DNA from: Promethearchaeota archaeon
Lineage (GTDB): Archaea; Asgardarchaeota; Lokiarchaeia; Sigyniarchaeales; SOKP01
Length of the DNA stretch: 64,000 bases
Direction: 5' to 3'
Assembly: GCA_016926735.1 (NCBI GenBank)
Contig: JAFGOA010000071.1
Coordinates: 10,064-74,063, forward strand
In this document: positions 29,392 through 40,746 of the stretch, in pieces
Layout of the letters: the number at the start of each line of letters is the position of its first letter
Position numbering within the stretch: the first letter of the stretch is position 1
Translations under genes and position numbers: made by a program
Notes under the pieces: generated by a model
The model's database searches: none
Seen by the model: only the letters and a program-made list of their open reading frames with translations
What the model was told of the DNA's origin: nothing

Positions 29392-30576
29392 CTAAATTGT
29401 ATGTATTTCAACAATATCCTTATCCTCTAAATCATAATCTAATCCAACCTTCTTTCTCTTTTGTCTGGCATTTTTTCTTATAACAACTGCAAAATCAAAT
29501 AATTCTAAAAAGGTTCTATGAATTTTGTAAGCAACATCTCTAATTTTAGCTTCTTTATTCAAGATTAAAGGTTTTTCAGCAACTTTACCAGAATTCATAG
29601 TATAAATTCTTATTTTTTCTAAAAGATTTAAAACCAGTTCTCCAAAATCTGAAGGAAAATTCTTTCTTACAACACTTGAAGCTATTATTTTAAATTTTTT
29701 AGAATATTTTTTTTTCAATATTTCGAAATTATCTTCTGTATGCGGAAGATCTCCTTTTGTACCAATAATTATTGCTTTTCTATATACTATAGAATGATTT
29801 AAACAATCTACTATTTGCTCTAAGTTTATTCTACCATATATTTTTACAATGCAATTATGAATACCATTTACTCTAATAATTTGTTTAATTTTATCTGATA
29901 ATTCCATACTTTCTTTAGATTCTTTTGTTAAAAATAAGATTTGAATATTATTTGATCCCGTTTTTTCGATATCTATTGAAGGAGGACATTCATTAATTTT
30001 AATATCACCATTACTTAATTCATCAAATAATAAATCAAGTTGTTCATTAATATCCCTCGATAAATCTACGCAAATAGCAATAAGATCACATGAACGAATT
30101 TGTGCAATTATCTCTTTTCCATTTCCTACACCTTTATATGCATTCCTCATAATAGAAGGCATGTCAACTATTTGAAATCTAATCTTTTCATAATTTAATA
30201 TCCCTATTTCTGGTAATGCATTAAAACTACCGATTTTTGTTTTTGCGGCATTTGTTAAATAATTAAGAAGTGAGGTTTTTCCTACACCAGGAATATGATA
30301 ATCACTTATTAGAATAATTTGAATACCCTCTTTCTTAATTGAAAAAGGACTAACAACTTTACTTATAGATTTTTGTTTTTTTTCCTCTAATTGCCTTTTA
30401 AGCTTCGCTAGTTTAGATTTATTCTGAGCAACAATGTTTTCGGTGGCTTTATGTTTTGGGACAATAGATAGAAATTCTTCGAGTCTTTTTATTTGCTCCT
30501 CTATTGTTCCAGCATCTAAATATTTTTGATATGCTGCTTGAGCTTCAGGTCCTATATTAGAAGACAAAATAATCAC
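29392..30576 (-). CDS. DRG/OBG-family GTPase-like protein with TGS domain; degenerate G motifs (likely start TTG, MSSNIG)
   Basis: 'PKHKATE', 'GVGKTS', 'QIVDMP', 'TKGD', 'IRIYT', 'KVGLDY.LED.DIVEI'. Confidence 0.82.
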   Translation of the reverse strand: MIILSSNIGPEAQAAYQKYLDAGTIEEQIKRLEEFLSIVPKHKATENIVAQNKSKLAKLKRQLEEKKQKSISKVVSPFSIKKEGIQIILISDYHIPGVGKTSLLNYLTNAAKTKIGSFNALPEIGILNYEKIRFQIVDMPSIMRNAYKGVGNGKEIIAQIRSCDLIAICVDLSRDINEQLDLLFDELSNGDIKINECPPSIDIEKTGSNNIQILFLTKESKESMELSDKIKQIIRVNGIHNCIVKIYGRINLEQIVDCLNHSIVYRKAIIIGTKGDLPHTEDNFEILKKKYSKKFKIIASSVVRKNFPSDFGELVLNLLEKIRIYTMNSGKVAEKPLILNKEAKIRDVAYKIHRTFLELFDFAVVIRKNARQKRKKVGLDYDLEDKDIVEIHTI

Positions 30577-32026: not shown

Positions 32027-33154
32027 TCAGATTTGTCTCCGTTTCCATAAAAAGAATATTAAACCAGCAGTAAATCCAATTGCTACTAAAATGCCTAAAA
32101 GAACATACCAATTAAATTCTACAAGGCCAATTTCACTATTCAATGAATCAAGAGCATTTAAAATTTTTAGAGTTTGATAGGCATTATAGGACGTACTCAT
32201 AGAAGAATTTTGACTTCCAATCCCAGTAGAAGGATCCGAAAATCCACCATCAAGTGTGTTTTGGCGATCTAAAATCCAATTAATTGTTGTAAGTCTATCA
32301 TTATATTCACTTCCAGATACCATTGAGATAATTTTGATATTATAATAGGTGCTCCAAATTACTGTTTGAGTTAAAGAAGTATCTGGTTTATACCCACCAT
32401 TAGAAAGATAAAAACTCTTAGCATATTGAATTATTTTCTCTTTAGTCGTAGAAGTTAAATTATTAAAACTATCTAAGCTATTAAGAGCAAGAACGGCATA
32501 ATTTGTTGATGATATTGACGATACTGCAGTAGAATTTCCTCCAAATCCTCCATCAGTATTATTACAAGTCAATAACCAATTTATATGACTAAGTGCATTG
32601 TTCATTTCTTGATTAATTATCTCATAACATTTAATGCCTAGGAACGTAGATATTACAATCGGATATGAACTTGTATTTGTCATTGAAAACCCACCTGTGA
32701 TGAGATTTGTCTGGTTAAGATAATTGATAATTTTTCCATTTAAACTACTGTTAGAAATGATTATATTATTAATTTGTCCTAAAGTATTGATTGAACTTAA
32801 TAGATAATATAAATCATATAAATCCATGGCATCATCATCAATCTTATAATCTATTATACTTCCAAATAATTCAGATAGTTCTATAGAATCTACATAATAA
32901 TTAATTTCATTAAAGTCTTTCAATATCTCTAATGCATAAAAAGTTGCATCATAGGAGAGAGGACCATCAACTGAATTTGAAAATCCTTCAGAATCTGAGA
33001 TTCTATTGCTTGAGATAAAATCTATCAAATAATTGCTCCTTGATTTTGCTAATGATAAAGGGGTAATTATTAAAAATGATAATAATACGAAGCATATTAT
33101 CAATTTTTTAGTATGTTTCGTTTTCAATCTTGTACAACTTAATTTATCTTTCAA
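32027..33154 (-). CDS. Secreted, C-terminally anchored prenyltransferase-beta-repeat protein
   Basis: Signal peptide; repeats 'TGGF', 'NTDGGFG', 'SNGGY', 'QNTLDGGF' each followed by 'STxYA'-like helices; C-terminal TM then WKRRQI. Confidence 0.75.
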   Translation of the reverse strand: MKDKLSCTRLKTKHTKKLIICFVLLSFLIITPLSLAKSRSNYLIDFISSNRISDSEGFSNSVDGPLSYDATFYALEILKDFNEINYYVDSIELSELFGSIIDYKIDDDAMDLYDLYYLLSSINTLGQINNIIISNSSLNGKIINYLNQTNLITGGFSMTNTSSYPIVISTFLGIKCYEIINQEMNNALSHINWLLTCNNTDGGFGGNSTAVSSISSTNYAVLALNSLDSFNNLTSTTKEKIIQYAKSFYLSNGGYKPDTSLTQTVIWSTYYNIKIISMVSGSEYNDRLTTINWILDRQNTLDGGFSDPSTGIGSQNSSMSTSYNAYQTLKILNALDSLNSEIGLVEFNWYVLLGILVAIGFTAGLIFFLWKRRQI

Positions 33155-33490
33155 AAATTAATCTTTTTAAATTTAGCTTTTAATTAAAAATTAACTAATA
33201 AATCAAAAAAATGACCATTAATTGGGTTTTCAATAATATTAAAATTCAAATAAATTTGAATTAATATTATATAATTCCTCTTATGGCTCTAAATTATTAT
33301 TTCACTTGGTATTGGTTAGAAGTTCTTCATTGATTAAGAATAAATTAAAATTTTATCAATTTCTATTATTATAAAAATACAATTTTTATTATTTGTTTAT
33401 TTAAAAATCAAGGAAGTACAGGTATAAAAGAAAATAGGAAGATATAAAGAATTATTCAATAGAATTAATATAACATATAAAAGATCAGAA

Positions 33491-35029
33491 TTAATAATTA
33501 CCAAAAATCTGCGAGATATCAGTATGTAGGATTTCTTTATTTAATTCAAATTGTTCCTTTGTAACAAATAAATTCCTAAATGAGGGCAAACTTCCCAATA
33601 TTGTCGCACCATTATAGATAGCTAATTGAAGATTATTGGGTATAAAGAATTTTATTCCACTTTTAGAAGAATCCGTATATTCACTAAAACCTATACTTTT
33701 TACTGTTTCTTCTTTTGCTTTTTGAATTTCATTCATCGGGATTTTTAATGCTTCAGTTTTTAAATTATTACCACAAAAAGGACAAAATACTGATTCTTTA
33801 TCCTTTATTTCTTTTTTACATTTTGAACAAGTAATAATATTACTTATTTTATCTTGTGATATGTCTATTTGAATTGTTGGCATCTCCATATTTGCACCAC
33901 ATTGAGGACAATTTTTAATTCCACCTGATAAGCTGACTAATGTACCACATTGTGGACAAGTATCATTTTCTTTTTTATTTCCCTCAATTGGCTTTAATTC
34001 TTCAATTTTCTCATTTTTTTTACTGTTCTTCCCTTTATTTTTAATAGATATACCATATTGAGGTAATAATATATTTAATTCTGCTCTTAATCTTTCTTCA
34101 AAACCACTATGCGAAAGGTTACCTCCAGAAAGTACAATGTGAGATAAAAGAACATCCCAATATTCTTGATCAACATTCTGTAGACAGCTAATAACAGCAT
34201 GTTGAATTCCAGGAGAGTTTGAACCTATCATAGAAGGAGTAAATAGTACTTCTGTTGAATTATAGAGGATATGATCAGGTATTTGTACTTTAGAACCATC
34301 AGGCATATTATATTCGATACTTTCCCCTGTTTTTGCAGGATTATTTGGATCAATTGTAAAATAACAATTCTTTTCTTTTATTTCTTTTATTATTTCTTCT
34401 ACAGCAGAAGATGAAATATTTATACCTTCTCTCATTAATAGTGTTTTAAGATTATTGCTTACATCCATACCTGCTAAATTTAATCGCTGTACAGCTTGTA
34501 AAAGGATTTGCCCGTTAATTATGGGTACAATCCATGTTAATCCATCACCACTTTCAATAACTAAACCAGTAGTAAGACCTACAGAGAAACATGAAAGAAT
34601 TGGAGAAGGCACCATTAATAAATTATGAATTTGATGGGTTTCAAAAAGCACTCTTGCAATAAATTCTTTTATATCTTTTGATTGGAAAGGATCTTCAATA
34701 TAAATAATTGGATAATCTAAAGGATTTTGAATTCTAAGTAGAGTATATAAAATATGATTTAAAATTTGATAATAGCTATCCCAATCCACAATTGACCCAC
34801 GCTGTATTGGATGAGAAATTTTTAGAACACCTCTCATTTTCATTGCATCTTGTCCTATATACACATTTCTTGCATCAACATCAACCATTACTGAGTGATA
34901 TTTTTCAGTTCCAGTTATACAAGGAAAAATGTATCGAGGATTTACTTCTCCAGCAAATCCCACTTTAACATAAGCAGATCCAATATCAATGATGATTGGA
35001 GTCCCTGGTGTTGGTAATGACATTTTCAT
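33491..35029 (-). CDS. Actin-related protein with a double zinc-ribbon insertion
   Basis: 'IIIDIGS..VKVGFAGE..P..IFP', 'HPIQRG.I.DWD', 'TTGLVIESGDG', 'IKEK.CY', 'VLSGG', 'GATILGSL.SF'. Confidence 0.92.
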   Translation of the reverse strand: MKMSLPTPGTPIIIDIGSAYVKVGFAGEVNPRYIFPCITGTEKYHSVMVDVDARNVYIGQDAMKMRGVLKISHPIQRGSIVDWDSYYQILNHILYTLLRIQNPLDYPIIYIEDPFQSKDIKEFIARVLFETHQIHNLLMVPSPILSCFSVGLTTGLVIESGDGLTWIVPIINGQILLQAVQRLNLAGMDVSNNLKTLLMREGINISSSAVEEIIKEIKEKNCYFTIDPNNPAKTGESIEYNMPDGSKVQIPDHILYNSTEVLFTPSMIGSNSPGIQHAVISCLQNVDQEYWDVLLSHIVLSGGNLSHSGFEERLRAELNILLPQYGISIKNKGKNSKKNEKIEELKPIEGNKKENDTCPQCGTLVSLSGGIKNCPQCGANMEMPTIQIDISQDKISNIITCSKCKKEIKDKESVFCPFCGNNLKTEALKIPMNEIQKAKEETVKSIGFSEYTDSSKSGIKFFIPNNLQLAIYNGATILGSLPSFRNLFVTKEQFELNKEILHTDISQIFGNY

Positions 35030-35160
35030 CGATTTTTTAATTAATCAGAATAAAAAATTGTAAATATAATATCTATAAGATTTTACTTTATTATATTTAT
35101 TTTGGATCATTGATATAGTATTTTAATTTTTTCTTTTTATTTAGATTCTATTGTCAAATA

Positions 35161-35592
35161 TTATGTCAAATATTTCATCAGTTTTATTAAGATAGTCTTT
35201 TCTAAGACTAATCCTATTAATTCATTTTTATCATTTACAACAGGAATTCTCTCAACATTATTATCAAACATTTTTTTCAAAGCATCTATTAACATATCAT
35301 TTTGTTTTATAATATACAATTCAGAAGTCATTAGATCTTTTACAAGAGTATTTGGTTTATCTAAAGACATAGCAAAGCGAGCTAGTCTAATATCTCGTTG
35401 AGTAATAATACCAATTAATTTCTTATTATCGTGTGATTCTACAACAGGAAGACCCCCTATATTTTTTCTAACCATTAAAAGTTCAGTTGTGCTAATTTTT
35501 TCATTAGGAGTAATATATAAAGGATCTTCTACCATAATTTCAGAAATTTTTAATTTTCCAAATTTTTGAAGAGTTTTATCTTCTTCTGACAT
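35161..35592 (-). CDS. CBS-domain pair protein
   Basis: 'IGGLPVV...LIGIITQRD' and 'RIPVV...LIG'. Confidence 0.9.
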   Translation of the reverse strand: MSEEDKTLQKFGKLKISEIMVEDPLYITPNEKISTTELLMVRKNIGGLPVVESHDNKKLIGIITQRDIRLARFAMSLDKPNTLVKDLMTSELYIIKQNDMLIDALKKMFDNNVERIPVVNDKNELIGLVLEKTILIKLMKYLT

Positions 35593-35657
35593 GTTCTTTT
35601 ATTCCATACTTTTAATATATAAAAATAAAATAAATCGCATATTCAACTATAATAAAT

Positions 35658-36107
35658 TCAATAAAGTTTTTTTAACTTTTGTTCTAATTTTTTTTCAAGA
35701 ATAAAAACTTCTTCAATCATATTTTTATAGAGAGCTAATAGAGATTTTCCCCATTCATTTAATTCTACAGTACCTCCACCCCCAACACCACCTTTGTGTG
35801 TAATAACGGGAGATAAACCGGTACGATTTTCAATTCTTTTTAATATATTCCAAGAATATTTATAAGAATAATTACATTTTTCAGCAGCTTTAGATAAAGA
35901 TTTGATTTCATCTTTTTCTATTGCTTCTAATAAATTTGCCCATCCTTTACCCAATATACTAATATCTTCAAACTTTAACCAAAATTTTAAACCAAAATTT
36001 ATTTTCTTTTTTAGTTCTAATATATTTTGGGGATTATTCATGTTAATCATAAAAACAGATAATTGATATAAATTATTAATTTTACTATAAACATCACTTA
36101 AAATCAA
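35658..36107 (-). CDS. ModE-family winged-helix regulator (no TOBE domain)
   Basis: 'G.G...LLEAI...SLSKAA...SYK..W..L..IE', 'GGVGGGGT.L'. Confidence 0.82.
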   Translation of the reverse strand: MILSDVYSKINNLYQLSVFMINMNNPQNILELKKKINFGLKFWLKFEDISILGKGWANLLEAIEKDEIKSLSKAAEKCNYSYKYSWNILKRIENRTGLSPVITHKGGVGGGGTVELNEWGKSLLALYKNMIEEVFILEKKLEQKLKKLY

Positions 36108-36299
36108 TGATTTTTAATTAAATTTATCCATATTAATTCTAATTTTAATCCATATTATTTAAATTTGTAAATCCATTGAAATGAATTCATTTTTCAAACA
36201 ATTAGTTCAAATGAAATTTCGAGTAATTTTGTCCTAAAAAGAAAAGAAAATAAAGAAAAAAATGTTTACAAATATAAAGAATTAAAATAGGTTAGATAA

Positions 36300-37043
36300 T
36301 TGTTTTTCACTGGTTCGATAAAAAAAGGGAAAAAGGTCATAGATGATTTATTTTTTTTCCCTGAAACTCAAATGTTAGATTGTAATCAATATTTAATTGA
36401 CAATAGAGAAAATGATGAATTAATTTTATTTGATGCAGGAAATGGAAAATCCTTAGAAGCTTTATTTGAAGGTATGAAAAATATTGGTTATGACTATAAC
36501 AAAATAAAAAAAGTATACCTGACACATGAACATGTAGATCATGTACTTGGAGTATATGAATTGTTAAAAAAAATGAATGATAAACCGCCTGAAATATATG
36601 CATATGAAAAAACGGCAAAGATTTTAAGAGAAGGTAATGAATCTGAGATTATACCAGCAGGATTAGGGATAACATCGCATATGTTAGGCGTAGACATTAA
36701 ACCTATTAATGTTATAGATATAAAAAATAATGATCAAATTATTTTAAATTCTGAATTCTCATTTAAAATATATTTTAGTCCTGGACATTCCCAAGGATCC
36801 ATTGTTTTTTATGAACCGGAAAAGAAAATATTAATACCAGGAGATGTTGTCTTTACTGGTGGTAGCTTCGGCAGATATGATTTTCCAGGAGGATCTCTTA
36901 ATCAACTTCAGAAATCAATAGATTTTATTAGTAACTTGGATGTGATATATCTATTACCAGGACATATGAATATAAGTGATAATGGAAACGAACAAATTGA
37001 ATATTCTAATAAAATGGTTCATTCAATGAGCGGATATTTCTAA
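36300..37043 (+). CDS. MBL-fold metallo-hydrolase
   Basis: 'DAG', 'THEHVDH', 'PGHS', 'GD', 'PGH'. Confidence 0.9.
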   Translation: MFFTGSIKKGKKVIDDLFFFPETQMLDCNQYLIDNRENDELILFDAGNGKSLEALFEGMKNIGYDYNKIKKVYLTHEHVDHVLGVYELLKKMNDKPPEIYAYEKTAKILREGNESEIIPAGLGITSHMLGVDIKPINVIDIKNNDQIILNSEFSFKIYFSPGHSQGSIVFYEPEKKILIPGDVVFTGGSFGRYDFPGGSLNQLQKSIDFISNLDVIYLLPGHMNISDNGNEQIEYSNKMVHSMSGYF

Positions 37044-37202: not shown

Positions 37203-37859
37203 ATGTCTAATGAAAAAAAAGTAGACGAAGTATATTTAAGAAATTATCCTAAAGTAATCTTCTTTTGGCCAGTATTCTTCACTTCTTTTATATTGTGGAT
37301 TATACAATGGGTAATAGGAGATATACCAAATAATATTTTGGGATATTTTTGGGCAGCAATGTTCTTCATCAATATTTTTGTTGTTGCTTTTGATTTTTCA
37401 TCAACAAAGTTCTTTATTCTTGTGTTAGTTATTGTAATAGCTTTGGTAATTATAATTATATGGCTTTTACCTAACATAGAAATACACCCAGGTGTTGAAT
37501 TCAATTTAGGTTTAACTTGGCAATTCTATCTTACAATGACTTTAATGTTAGGTCTACCTTTAGGAATGGTTGTTTTAAATGCCTATTTTAGTTATTATAA
37601 AGTTGAGAGAAATGAAATATACCATAAAAGTGGAATCTTTAGTTCTGCTGAAAGATTTCCGGTATCTAATTTAAGAATAAAGAAATCGATCCCAGATGTT
37701 TTTGAATTCTTATTTTTACGTGCTGGATCAATGGTGTTAATCCCGGGTAGATCAGAGGATGTAATAAACTTACCTACAGTACTAAATATAAATAAAAAAG
37801 CAAAAAGGATTGATGATCTCTTAAGTCATGTTTCTGTAGAACCGGATGAAGTTGATTAA
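37203..37859 (+). CDS. Membrane protein (4 TM) with a C-terminal PH-like soluble domain
   Basis: Four hydrophobic helices, then 'Y.V...I....GIF...E......GS' pattern. Confidence 0.6.
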   Translation: MSNEKKVDEVYLRNYPKVIFFWPVFFTSFILWIIQWVIGDIPNNILGYFWAAMFFINIFVVAFDFSSTKFFILVLVIVIALVIIIIWLLPNIEIHPGVEFNLGLTWQFYLTMTLMLGLPLGMVVLNAYFSYYKVERNEIYHKSGIFSSAERFPVSNLRIKKSIPDVFEFLFLRAGSMVLIPGRSEDVINLPTVLNINKKAKRIDDLLSHVSVEPDEVD

Positions 37860-37941: not shown

Positions 37942-40746
37942 TTGCACGCAAAATTCTTATTGAATTTACAATTAAATTATAAAAAGGTTAATATGATAAA
38001 TATGTTTAATATTGAAGATTTTCAAAACTACTCAATAATCATCCCAATTATAAAAAAAATTAATAAATATTTAGAAAAAGGAAAACATTCAAATATTTCC
38101 CCTCAAATTGAAGAATTAAAAAGGTATTTAGATCATGATACTTTAAGCGTACCTATTACATATATATTTAGTGTATTAGCTGAGAATTATCCAGAGTTAT
38201 TTAATCTTGAGCTTATTGATAAAATTGAACCTTTAGTCTATTCTGACAATATAAAATTAAAATTAAATTCGATATCAATTTTGGGTTTCTTTATTTTAAA
38301 TAATCCTGAGCTTATAGATATAAAATATTTCTCTTTATTCACTAAATTACTCAATACCGAAAAGAAAGATATAAGAGAGAATTGCTATTATTTTCTACAG
38401 AGGATGTTCAATATTGATCAAAGAAAATTATTAAAATTTATGGATAATTTACTTGAAGCTTTAGAATTAGAAATATTGGACTCAAAGTTAGAAGATATAA
38501 TTATTATTCTTAATTTTATTCAGAATTGTGATAATTTTAATTTCAAACAACTATATACATTAAGAAAATTATCGAAATCAATTATTACAGAGATTTATGA
38601 CGATTCAGATTCAGATCTTAAATCAATTCTGAATAATCTTTTAAAAAATAAATATCAAGAGTTAATAGGAGTAAATTTTGAAGATATCAATAATAATGAT
38701 CTATTATCATTGATAAACAAAACATTTATCCAATTAAAATATGAATTTAACAATGATTTGAAGAAAGAAAAACAGATTGAATTCAAAGATTATTTGAAAA
38801 AATTTAAAAAAAATGTTCTTAAAGAAAAAGAGATATACTTTTATTTTAAAGATCAAGAAAAGCAGAATATTTATCTTTTTGAACTAGAGAAAGAAAAAAC
38901 AATTGATTTCTTCAATCAAAATTGTAAATTATCATATCAAGAGATTATTAATCAATTCCAAAAGGTTTTAGATGATTCAAATCTCCAATTATTTGTAAAA
39001 ATGCTATTAAAATTAAAGCATATTAGTGGTTTTCTTTCAGAATTTAATTTCTATCCTTCAAACTATATTATTACTGAATTAACTAATTCTCTAAAAGAAG
39101 TTGGATATATTGAATTGGATAATTATAATTATTTACCAATAGATTTTATTATAGAGAATATTAAGAAAATCTCAAATGAGGCAAACTATAAAATACTTGT
39201 TGGAAAAGAAAAAAAAACATTTCATGTACTTTCGAAAATTACAGAAAAAATTAGGGAAATAGCAGCTAAAGAAACATGTATTAATTTAAAGACATATCGA
39301 GACCAATTTACTGAAAAGTCATTTGTAAAAATTATAAAATCTCTACCAAAAGATTATTTAACAAGCTATCATAAAGGTTCAAGCTGGCTTACAAATATTG
39401 GAAAGTATAAATTTCTTAAAGAGCTAGAAAATTCTAAGATAATAGGATTTTTCGATATTGAGAAAATAAAAGAAAAGCTAGATATAACTGAAGATTTAAT
39501 TCGAGAAATTTTTAATAATGAAATAGATATACGTAGTGGAGTATGGAATAAATCGCAAGATATCTTTTATTATTCAAAATATATAAAACAAAAGGTTGAA
39601 GATATAAATCAAATTAAAGATCCTCAAGAAAGAGTAGATAGAATAAATAAATTATCAAGAGATCTTAACATAGAAAAGGAAAAAATTATTGGTAAAATTG
39701 ATGAGAATATAGAATTAATCGGAGAAGAAATAAAGAATCAAGATCAAATCCGTATTCCAGAATATATAGAAAAACTAGGTATGGATTATAATGATTTTAT
39801 GCATTATATTGATAGTTTGGGCTTAAATTATCTAAAAAGAGCTGATTTTCTCATATTCAATCCTTTAAAAATTGAAAATGCTAAAAAAGAGATAACACAA
39901 TTAATTAAAAGAGACATTCAAACATTAGATTTTATTTCTTTGGATAATTACGATATGAATTCTACAATTATAAAAGAAATCTTAAAAGAATTACAGAATA
40001 TAGAAGAATTTAAAGGAATAGTATACGAAATGGAAAATGAAAAAAAGTTCTATACCCAAATAGGATTGAAAAATATGATGCTCTCAAACATATTTCTATT
40101 TTCTTTCCACGATTTCTTTTATGGTAAAACATTAGATGATAATGAAATATCAATCCTTTTAAACCTTTTTTATGACCTTAATAAACAAGGAAGATTAAAG
40201 GGAACATTTAATAAAGCAACATTAACCTTTTCTAGCGATGAAATCGTATTTGCAAAAGATTATAACAGTAATTTAGATCAATTCAGATTCATGGTTGATA
40301 ATTATATTAAAAAGTTTAATTCTGAATTTAAGAAAATTAAACCCATTTTAAATAAAGAAACAGCTATAATTCCACAAGAAATAAAATTAATACAGGATGC
40401 TATTCTAAGAATAAATGAGAATTATATATTTTGGAAAAGTAAATTAGATGCATATATAACAAGAGTACATAAAAAATTATTAGAAGATCAGGGTATTTCT
40501 TTGAAAAAGTTTAATTCTGTGTCATATACTGGAATGGATAAGAAAGATATAAAATCATTTGCAGATGATATTGAAGTTAAAGAATTAATGGATAAATTCA
40601 ACTATTGGATAAGTCTTTTCAATAAATTAGAATTGAAATATCAAAATGTAATATTCTATCAAAAAAGATATTTAAATAATCCAGATGATCAAGAATCTAA
40701 TCAAAATTTACTAGAATTAAGAAAAGAATTAAATTTAACACAGTAG
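37942..40746 (+). CDS. Large protein: HEAT/ARM-like N-terminus, repeated winged-helix-like units, C-terminal helical bundle (start probably ~37992-38001)
   Basis: 'LL......IRENC' helical repeats; recurring 'G.I.L/G.F.I', 'ISG...FYP', 'GRLKGTFN...TF'. Confidence 0.6.
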   Translation: MHAKFLLNLQLNYKKVNMINMFNIEDFQNYSIIIPIIKKINKYLEKGKHSNISPQIEELKRYLDHDTLSVPITYIFSVLAENYPELFNLELIDKIEPLVYSDNIKLKLNSISILGFFILNNPELIDIKYFSLFTKLLNTEKKDIRENCYYFLQRMFNIDQRKLLKFMDNLLEALELEILDSKLEDIIIILNFIQNCDNFNFKQLYTLRKLSKSIITEIYDDSDSDLKSILNNLLKNKYQELIGVNFEDINNNDLLSLINKTFIQLKYEFNNDLKKEKQIEFKDYLKKFKKNVLKEKEIYFYFKDQEKQNIYLFELEKEKTIDFFNQNCKLSYQEIINQFQKVLDDSNLQLFVKMLLKLKHISGFLSEFNFYPSNYIITELTNSLKEVGYIELDNYNYLPIDFIIENIKKISNEANYKILVGKEKKTFHVLSKITEKIREIAAKETCINLKTYRDQFTEKSFVKIIKSLPKDYLTSYHKGSSWLTNIGKYKFLKELENSKIIGFFDIEKIKEKLDITEDLIREIFNNEIDIRSGVWNKSQDIFYYSKYIKQKVEDINQIKDPQERVDRINKLSRDLNIEKEKIIGKIDENIELIGEEIKNQDQIRIPEYIEKLGMDYNDFMHYIDSLGLNYLKRADFLIFNPLKIENAKKEITQLIKRDIQTLDFISLDNYDMNSTIIKEILKELQNIEEFKGIVYEMENEKKFYTQIGLKNMMLSNIFLFSFHDFFYGKTLDDNEISILLNLFYDLNKQGRLKGTFNKATLTFSSDEIVFAKDYNSNLDQFRFMVDNYIKKFNSEFKKIKPILNKETAIIPQEIKLIQDAILRINENYIFWKSKLDAYITRVHKKLLEDQGISLKKFNSVSYTGMDKKDIKSFADDIEVKELMDKFNYWISLFNKLELKYQNVIFYQKRYLNNPDDQESNQNLLELRKELNLTQ

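Follow-up and report, generated by a model that had tools for sequence, protein, structure and literature searches.

Actin-related proteins (ARPs) of Asgard archaea are often cited in support of a regulated actin cytoskeleton that existed before eukaryotes, and none of them has an assigned activity. In Candidatus (Ca.) Lokiarchaeum ossiferum, three ARPs other than Lokiactin have been included in a published tree and followed by reverse-transcription quantitative PCR (RT-qPCR), and the available portion of that report gives transcript levels below that of Lokiactin for these ARPs, GenBank UYP44711.1 among them (PMC9834061). The present study concerns a relative of these proteins, named ZnARP (zinc-ribbon actin-related protein), which is encoded in a stretch of 64,000 nucleotides (hereafter the window) from the genome of a Promethearchaeota archaeon of the class Lokiarchaeia (contig JAFGOA010000071.1). 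Our analysis revealed that ZnARP is a member of the actin family that keeps the whole actin fold, and that it is an ARP rather than a bona fide actin, with the Q137/H161 pair of actin gone and a clade of its own separate from Lokiactin. The Ca. L. ossiferum member of this clade (P0312, 499 amino acids) contains the two peptides that the UYP44711.1 primers of the published RT-qPCR encode, so the clade is one of the three ARPs mentioned above and is already represented in the published tree and RT-qPCR; the same portion of PMC9834061 contains no mention of an insert or of zinc ribbons for these proteins. The features of the window ZnARP are as follows:

33491..35029, minus strand: ZnARP coding sequence, an intact open reading frame (ORF) with an ATG start, 512 amino acids plus stop
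34058..35029, minus strand: actin core, N-terminal part, residues 1-324, with subdomains 1, 2 and 4 and most of 3, to helix K / 'LLPQ' (HMMER query 2-324; predicted local distance difference test score, pLDDT, mostly >90)
34853..34903, minus strand: D-loop equivalent KYHSVMVDVDARNVYIG, residues 43-59 (aligned to the D-loops of actin and HC1 actin)
34604..34606, minus strand: S142, the equivalent of actin Q137 (HMMER alignment; T68/S49/A3 in 120 family sequences)
34532..34534, minus strand: W166, the equivalent of actin H161 (HMMER alignment; W118/S2 in 120 family sequences)
33659..34057, minus strand: insert in the helix K / strand 15 loop of subdomain 3, residues 325-457, 133 amino acids, in which three linkers flank and separate the two ribbons, the last linker closing with acidic-aromatic FSEY (HMMER, AlphaFold2 and alignment)
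33899..33958, minus strand: predicted zinc ribbon 1, CPQC-x12-CPQC, C358/C361/C374/C377, in every clade member examined
33773..33829, minus strand: predicted zinc ribbon 2, CSKC-x11-CPFC, C401/C404/C416/C419, invariant in the own family and missing in some sister-family members
33491..33658, minus strand: actin core, C-terminal part, residues 458-512, with strand 15 'IKFFIP' and the subdomain 1 helices (HMMER query 457-502 against actin 325-372; pLDDT 83-92)

The original prediction, made from the letters of the DNA and their translations, had proposed a near-complete actin fold with a D-loop-like segment, and both parts of this proposal were borne out. The Pfam Actin profile (PF00022) matched ZnARP in two stretches, one on either side of the insert, with an E value of 2.2e-70 and 237.8 bits (cut-off 27), and 166 distinct chains of solved structures matched at E <=0.001, with 9wc4_A ('HC1 actin', 2.8e-69) at the top and conventional actins and Arp1 structures behind it at about 1e-63. 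The AlphaFold2 model, built on a 120-sequence alignment, reached a pLDDT of 79.1 and a predicted template modelling score of 0.72, with most of the actin core above 90, and a Foldseek search with this model matched only actins, at TM-scores of 0.90-0.93 normalised to the target actin chains. The segment KYHSVMVDVDARNVYIG aligned with the actin D-loop; family conservation is strong on either side of it, and pLDDT was low at residues 49-53.

The insert was also located as had been proposed, in subdomain 3 at about actin residues 322-326. ZnARP residues 2-324 aligned to actin up to residue 323 and residues 457/458-502 aligned from actin 325/326 on, such that two actin loop residues, between the equivalents of actin S323 and K326, are replaced by 133 residues (nucleotides 33659-34057); the original estimate had been about 130 residues between 'ELNILLP' and 'IKFFIP'. 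The CPQC..CPQC and CSKC..CPFC pairs already recognised within it comprise eight cysteines between residues 358 and 419, all of which were invariant in 120 of 120 aligned sequences (the window ZnARP and 119 homologues, its identical copy P0002 being left out), and the direct DNA repeat D2 in the gene corresponds to the two CPQCG knuckles of ribbon 1. By structural class, judged from sequence patterns, these are two conserved CxxC...CxxC zinc ribbons, with zinc binding itself predicted. On the window protein the ribbon profiles fell just under their cut-offs (DZR, PF12773, 26.2 versus 27.3 bits; Zn_ribbon_3, 26.1 versus 27), PF12773 is in the precomputed family list of P0002, and DZR exceeded the Pfam cut-off in sister-family relatives (32.6-42 bits versus 27.3). 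Ribbons of RNA polymerase subunit P and of the TFIIB type gave weak, sub-threshold profile matches.

In the AlphaFold2 model the ribbons scored a pLDDT of 68-76, while the linkers 333-351, 384-397 and 425-455 were almost entirely below 50, which fits beads on a tether. The insert contains 22 Lys and Arg versus 18 Asp and Glu and is not notably basic. Across the clade, the exit is marked by the motif LPxLG; ribbon 1, which all members share, is preceded by a short hydrophobic motif and followed by [TQK]-I-x-I, and an acidic-aromatic [SE]-E-[YF] comes before re-entry into the core. Furthermore, 36 of 43 aligned rows in the sister-family clade to which both cultured Lokiarchaeia belong (P0290, P0312 and relatives) carried, in the last linker of the insert, the segment KLDRKEKKL[LI]KKT[SA] followed after about five residues by EL..L....VESEYG (e.g., P0290, about 441-476), reminiscent of the LKKT motif of beta-thymosin/WH2. 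An identity with WH2 or beta-thymosin was set aside and is kept as no more than a lead, as no Pfam WH2 or thymosin match was obtained at E values up to 10 and the motif helices reached a pLDDT of only 57-73 in the AlphaFold2 model of P0290. The LKKT-like motif is absent from the window ZnARP and from its own family, where only [SE]E[YF] is kept.

Considering the nucleotide-binding site, the proper alignment agreed with the earlier by-eye comparison in that actin Q137 and H161 are altered, to S142 and W166, and additionally placed E159 at actin D154. Neither Gln at the Q137 position nor His at the H161 position occurred in any of the 120 family sequences (0/120 each), and the D154 position was Glu in 118 and Asp in 2. 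The nucleotide-loop residues D11, G13, K18, G156, G158 and G301/G302 were invariant (120/120), and K213 and E214 were kept in 118 and 119 of the 120, respectively. In the sister families, Asn, His, Phe, Ser, Thr or Tyr occupied the H161 position, and D157 can be Cys. ZnARP thus keeps the phosphate-binding and adenine-binding loops of actin without the two residues that position the attacking water there. As read from the alignment, the loss of Q137 and H161 argues for slow hydrolysis, not for an inability to polymerise.

The conservation of the family was assessed at several scales. A word-indexed search scored 8000 candidates and yielded 296 proteins at E <=0.001, of which the best 120 were 499-523 amino acids long, 55-100% identical to the window ZnARP and all assigned to PF00022 plus at least one zinc-ribbon family (DZR and/or related). 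A scan of one genome per species found relatives encoded in 130 genomes, and in the 80 kept, the match spanned residues 1-3 to 509-512 nearly always. HMMER over 1.84 billion representatives returned one at 55% identity, then a few at 39-46% with four CxxC at the same site and one with two; beyond this ZnARP-like set, identity dropped to about 28-37% and the matches were ordinary actin-domain proteins. The genuineness of the insert had been set beforehand as a test, and it was found in close and distant relatives alike. Misassembly or a chimaera as the source of the insert, or decay of the gene, is accordingly ruled out, with a residual probability close to nil, by the shared architecture of all 120 listed homologues, the relatives in 130 species genomes and the eight invariant cysteines, besides the intact open frame and the monophyly of the clade.

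The survey across Asgard genomes that had been suggested was carried out on 400 genomes of the phylum. Full-length relatives (E <1e-110) were encoded in 127 of 134 other genomes of the own family, and 15 of 19 genomes of sister families in the same order gave matches at 1e-83 to 1e-129 (36-46% identity, open frames of 489-566 amino acids), always with ribbon 1. In seven genomes of other orders of the class, and in all other classes, the best matches did not go beyond about 1e-65 to 1e-74, the level of Lokiactin, and among the other-class matches listed the coverage ended at about ZnARP residue 328. Both cultured members of the Lokiarchaeia have a homologue, namely P0290 (557 amino acids) of Promethearchaeum syntrophicum and P0312 of Ca. 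L. ossiferum. These results demonstrate that ZnARP is a real, lineage-specific variant of one Lokiarchaeia order and is nearly universal there. Several full-length members, 55-58% identical, are labelled as Hod-, Hermod-, Thor-, Odin- or Heimdallarchaeota in public records, and the partial protein P0137 of the clade is labelled as a Firmicutes metagenome-assembled genome; such outlying labels are probably due to inconsistent binning or naming and not to a wider distribution.

A quick IQ-TREE analysis was performed on 80 rows, comprising 17 ZnARPs, six Lokiactins, two other ARPs of the own genome and 55 unnamed representatives of 340-480 amino acids; a further 89 representatives of other lengths, for the most part longer proteins that are multi-domain or fused, were excluded, and no named Arp1-10 was included. 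The part of the original prediction that set ZnARP apart from Lokiactin was upheld, since the ZnARPs were monophyletic and the Lokiactins formed a separate clade, both with a Shimodaira-Hasegawa-like approximate likelihood-ratio test (SH-aLRT) support of 100. No orthology to any of the eukaryotic classes Arp1-Arp10 appeared in this tree, which was built without named Arp1-10. Four of ten tree representatives that were looked up had names, all of them eukaryotic actins. The only neighbour of the ZnARP clade was a 371-amino-acid ARP of the own genome (L002; support 89, called weakly supported), and the deep nodes were open (35 of 77 inner branches). Within the clade, the one-ribbon forms G279 and P0126 made up the first split, and another one-ribbon form, G138, was nested among two-ribbon forms, indicating that ribbon 2 was lost at least once. 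P0312, whose sequence equals the G138 orthologue, likewise has ribbon 1 only and is 39% identical to the window ZnARP.

Across the order, ZnARP identity ranged from 33 to 60% versus 89-100% for Lokiactin, and by this measure ZnARP evolves much faster than Lokiactin, like an accessory protein. An insert-poor paralogue of the ZnARP clade (L121:2473-3630, minus strand; G195:C37) is 385 amino acids long, has an insert of about 12 residues and is 46% identical over residues 11-327. It occurred in one of 135 family genomes (88% complete, 7% contamination), possibly on a foreign contig; since it is rare and stands beside a full-length copy, it does not refute the conservation of the insert. Separately, seven of 21 other family genomes searched (G257, G239, G237, G233, G268, G256 and G277) carry an additional Lokiactin-like gene with 81-84% identity to the main one, a recent actin duplication within the family.

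As to function, we infer that ZnARP may be an ATP-bound, hydrolysis-poor accessory ARP that engages Lokiactin via its pointed face and/or its cleft, does not take part in normal subunit addition at its own barbed face and offers its ribbon(s) to a partner, a reading that we favour tentatively, with a confidence somewhat short of even. ZnARP would bind nucleotide and hydrolyse it slowly or not at all, and would form no canonical F-actin-like homopolymers. Docking on a Lokiactin subunit or on the end of a filament would use the conserved pointed-end face of ZnARP (the D-loop flanks and subdomains 2 and 4) and/or its conserved hydrophobic cleft. The insert, in occupying the longitudinal contact of subdomain 3, would block or alter the normal joining of the next subunit at the barbed end of ZnARP, and the zinc ribbon(s) would serve as a tethered binding module presented to a partner. 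From F-actin models, we take actin residues 322-325, with 283-294 of subdomain 3, to contact subdomain 4 of the next subunit along the strand; in the same models the cleft between subdomains 1 and 3 receives the D-loop. The generic form of this longitudinal contact, IIa-IIb, is described in the accessible part of PMC5597319.

Comparison of the interface segments is consistent with such an arrangement. The pointed-face segments were well conserved, with mean top-residue frequencies of 0.83-1.00 in the family, and shared 43-60% identity with Lokiactin versus 35% overall, and the cleft segments of the barbed face were also conserved (0.89). The least conserved interface segments were the subdomain-3 contact 283-294 (0.60; 3 of 12 residues identical to Lokiactin) and the W-loop (0.68; 2 of 8). 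As in the original prediction, ZnARP may be a non-polymerising cap, nucleator or adaptor; a cap or adaptor role is plausible, and several observations weigh against the accessory reading. The interface comparison uses residue ranges from F-actin models and few positions, which makes it soft evidence, and the conserved barbed-end cleft fits self-assembly equally well. The linkers of the insert are long and flexible, which could let the ribbons move out of the way of the longitudinal contact. Actin mutants at Q137 still polymerise. In the sister families S14 is replaced by Glu or Gln and subdomain 2 was modelled at low confidence, implying that nucleotide binding and D-loop function may not be general. 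Moreover, ZnARP was not found in seven of the 134 own-family genomes, where only Lokiactin-level matches (about 1e-63) were obtained; in five of these seven, a search with a closer query again returned only Lokiactin and other ARPs, and one of the genomes is 100% complete, suggesting that ZnARP may be dispensable.

Some of the same observations bear on an alternative in which ZnARP builds its own filaments or co-polymerises along Lokiactin, the ribbons being displayed on the filament surface as docking sites, so that the cell would have another, specialised cytoskeletal polymer. Family conservation covers both the hydrophobic cleft and the pointed-face segments, the D-loop resembles that of Lokiactin, the ribbons on their long disordered linkers need not block the contact, and in actin the loss of Q137/H161 slows hydrolysis without abolishing polymerisation. 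Such a polymer nevertheless seems unlikely, because the insert takes the place of longitudinal-contact residues, the subdomain-3 contact and the W-loop are the least conserved interface segments, and the ZnARP sequence changes fast compared with that of the polymer-forming Lokiactin; the filaments imaged in Ca. L. ossiferum were, in addition, attributed to Lokiactin, with ARP transcripts lower, in the available portion of PMC9834061. A bolder version of the accessory-ARP reading, to which we give little credence, would make ZnARP the first built-in regulator of filament ends in a prokaryote, docking on Lokiactin by its pointed face while the insert at the barbed-end contact caps or templates, as a one-polypeptide analogue of Arp2/3 or capping protein; the sister-family KLDRKEKKL[LI]KKT...VESEYG segment could then recruit or sequester Lokiactin monomers. 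If so, ARP-based control of filament ends would predate eukaryotes.

In addition to ZnARP, the own genome encodes Lokiactin (L001:1474-2619, 381 amino acids) and two more ARPs, along with two matches to profilin and five to gelsolin domains. The PF05856 (ARPC4) profile gave no match in the window genome, a blank that is uninformative because the control also matched nowhere. The most divergent actin homologue of the genome (G000:C202:7157-8254) has 389 amino acids and scored 149 bits to Pfam Actin, and a gelsolin-domain ORF (G000:C202:13118-13306) lies about 5 kb from it on the same contig. Within the window, ZnARP stands in the same-strand order ModE-like helix-turn-helix (HTH) protein, CBS-pair protein, ZnARP, toroid membrane protein and FolD, of which two neighbours matter for the alternatives below:

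35658..36107, minus strand: small ModE-like winged-helix (HTH) protein, 149 amino acids, upstream of ZnARP (NCBIfam TIGR00637, E 2.6e-11, below its cut-off)
32027..33154, minus strand: prenyltransferase-like alpha/alpha-toroid protein, directly downstream of ZnARP (Pfam PF00432, 2.8e-21)

Homologues of the HTH protein were found in the flanks of 72 of 80 family loci and four of six distant loci, directly upstream in three of the latter, and homologues of the toroid protein in 71 of 80 and five of six, respectively; both adjacencies are kept across the order. FolD homologues lie beside ZnARP in four of the six distant loci, and the CBS gene recurs in none of them. All neighbours recur in 53-75 of the 80 family loci; as the whole 13-kb region is thus syntenic within the family, adjacency there is weak evidence.

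The recurrent HTH gene raises the alternative that ZnARP is not cytoskeletal, and that it acts as a stable ATP-bound scaffold in a nucleic-acid- or transcription-associated complex, like the nuclear ARPs, with ribbons that bind DNA, RNA or protein, possibly together with the ModE-like protein. The conservation of this small gene upstream across the order would fit, as would the fact that zinc ribbons are common nucleic-acid- and protein-binding modules, the weak sub-threshold matches to RNA polymerase subunit P and TFIIB-type ribbons, and the resemblance of the catalytic-residue loss to that of the non-hydrolysing nuclear ARPs. We consider it improbable, given that the insert (22 Lys and Arg versus 18 Asp and Glu) has no marked basic character, no known DNA-binding zinc-ribbon family reached its cut-off, adjacency carries little weight in the syntenic region and the CBS gene sits between the HTH gene and ZnARP in the own family. 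Its extreme form, a ParM/ParR-like positioning pair as in ParMRC, was rejected on the finding that the region from 33100 to 36400 holds no iteron-like repeat array, with only a tandem pair of an 11-nt word upstream of ZnARP. This perfect pair, TGTCAAATATT, with 12-nt spacing (window 35152-35174), lies across the CBS stop codon about 125-145 nt upstream of the ZnARP start and may be a regulatory site.

On the downstream side, the toroid protein has a hydrophobic, signal-like segment at its N terminus and a membrane anchor at its C terminus, and ZnARP could be imagined as a membrane-cytoskeleton linker that ties Lokiactin to the envelope together with this surface protein. Its position directly downstream in the window, with homologues in most family and distant flanks, is in line with such a link; moreover, in the parts of the sources available, multi-zinc-ribbon proteins anchor FtsZ to the membrane in haloarchaea (bioRxiv 10.64898/2026.07.16.738847) and Lokiactin filaments run along the cell periphery and in protrusions (PMC9834061). 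However, the predicted cytoplasmic tail of the toroid protein has only about six residues, the two genes lie 336 nt apart in the window, the insert showed no amphipathic helix of the membrane-binding kind, and the unrelated housekeeping gene FolD is equally syntenic, which together make a linker of this kind quite improbable. The accessory-ARP reading remains the one that we prefer.

Other ORFs of the window include a 917-amino-acid ORF (37993-40746, plus strand) and a 218-amino-acid ORF (37203-37859, plus strand), neither with a Pfam or NCBIfam match and with homologues in 53 and 61 of the 80 family flanks, respectively. Of a DRG/Obg-like GTPase, a 256-amino-acid ORF (29392-30162, minus strand) has just the TGS domain and the C-terminal extension; no N-terminal GTPase part was recognised in the ORF as called, and the start may be miscalled or the gene split.

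In public records, ZnARP sequences are labelled 'zinc ribbon domain-containing protein' or 'actin-related protein'. No paper describing an actin or ARP with a zinc-ribbon insert was found in literature searches that included the available parts of PMC12993045 and PMC12050087, although supplementary tables, such as Asgard COG lists, could already list the architecture. To judge from these searches the insert is undescribed, even though the sequences are public and one member stands unremarked in a published tree. Being nearly universal in one order, present in both cultured Lokiarchaeia and hence experimentally tractable, peculiar at a filament contact and devoid of the hydrolytic residues, ZnARP is a concrete candidate for an archaeal ARP that modulates Lokiactin or links it to other structures.

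Compared with known systems, ZnARP resembles Lokiactin in its fold (36% identity to the own-genome copy over the core), D-loop (KY.S.M.DV), hydrophobic cleft and nucleotide loops, whereas Lokiactin retains Q137 and H161, lacks an insert and shows 89-100% identity across the order, and ZnARP has Ser/Thr and Trp at these positions, a 133-amino-acid insert and only 33-60% identity over the same range. Arp3 of the Arp2/3 complex is likewise an actin-fold subunit with lineage-specific inserts, one of them also placed in the loop between helix K and strand 15, close to the barbed end, and it acts on actin filaments without forming filaments itself, as proposed for ZnARP; unlike in ZnARP, its insert is short and free of zinc ribbons, the catalytic Gln and His are kept and it works within a seven-subunit complex, and no phylogenetic link between the two appeared in the 80-row tree, which held no named Arp1-10. 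The nuclear Arp5 and Arp8 also use the actin fold as a non-polymerising, weakly or non-hydrolysing scaffold whose large inserts bind macromolecules, but at other insertion sites, without zinc ribbons and as eukaryote-specific subunits of chromatin remodellers, and orthology with them is unsupported here. The insert itself shares its CxxC...CxxC pairs and their spacing with DZR (PF12773) and related archaeal zinc ribbons; a word-based search with residues 340-440 among proteins of 30-280 amino acids (23 candidates, none scored) found no stand-alone homologue, and, unlike in DZR proteins, the domain is nested in an actin fold. Decoration of the actin fold by nested domains, a hallmark of eukaryotic ARPs, has thus arisen in archaea too.

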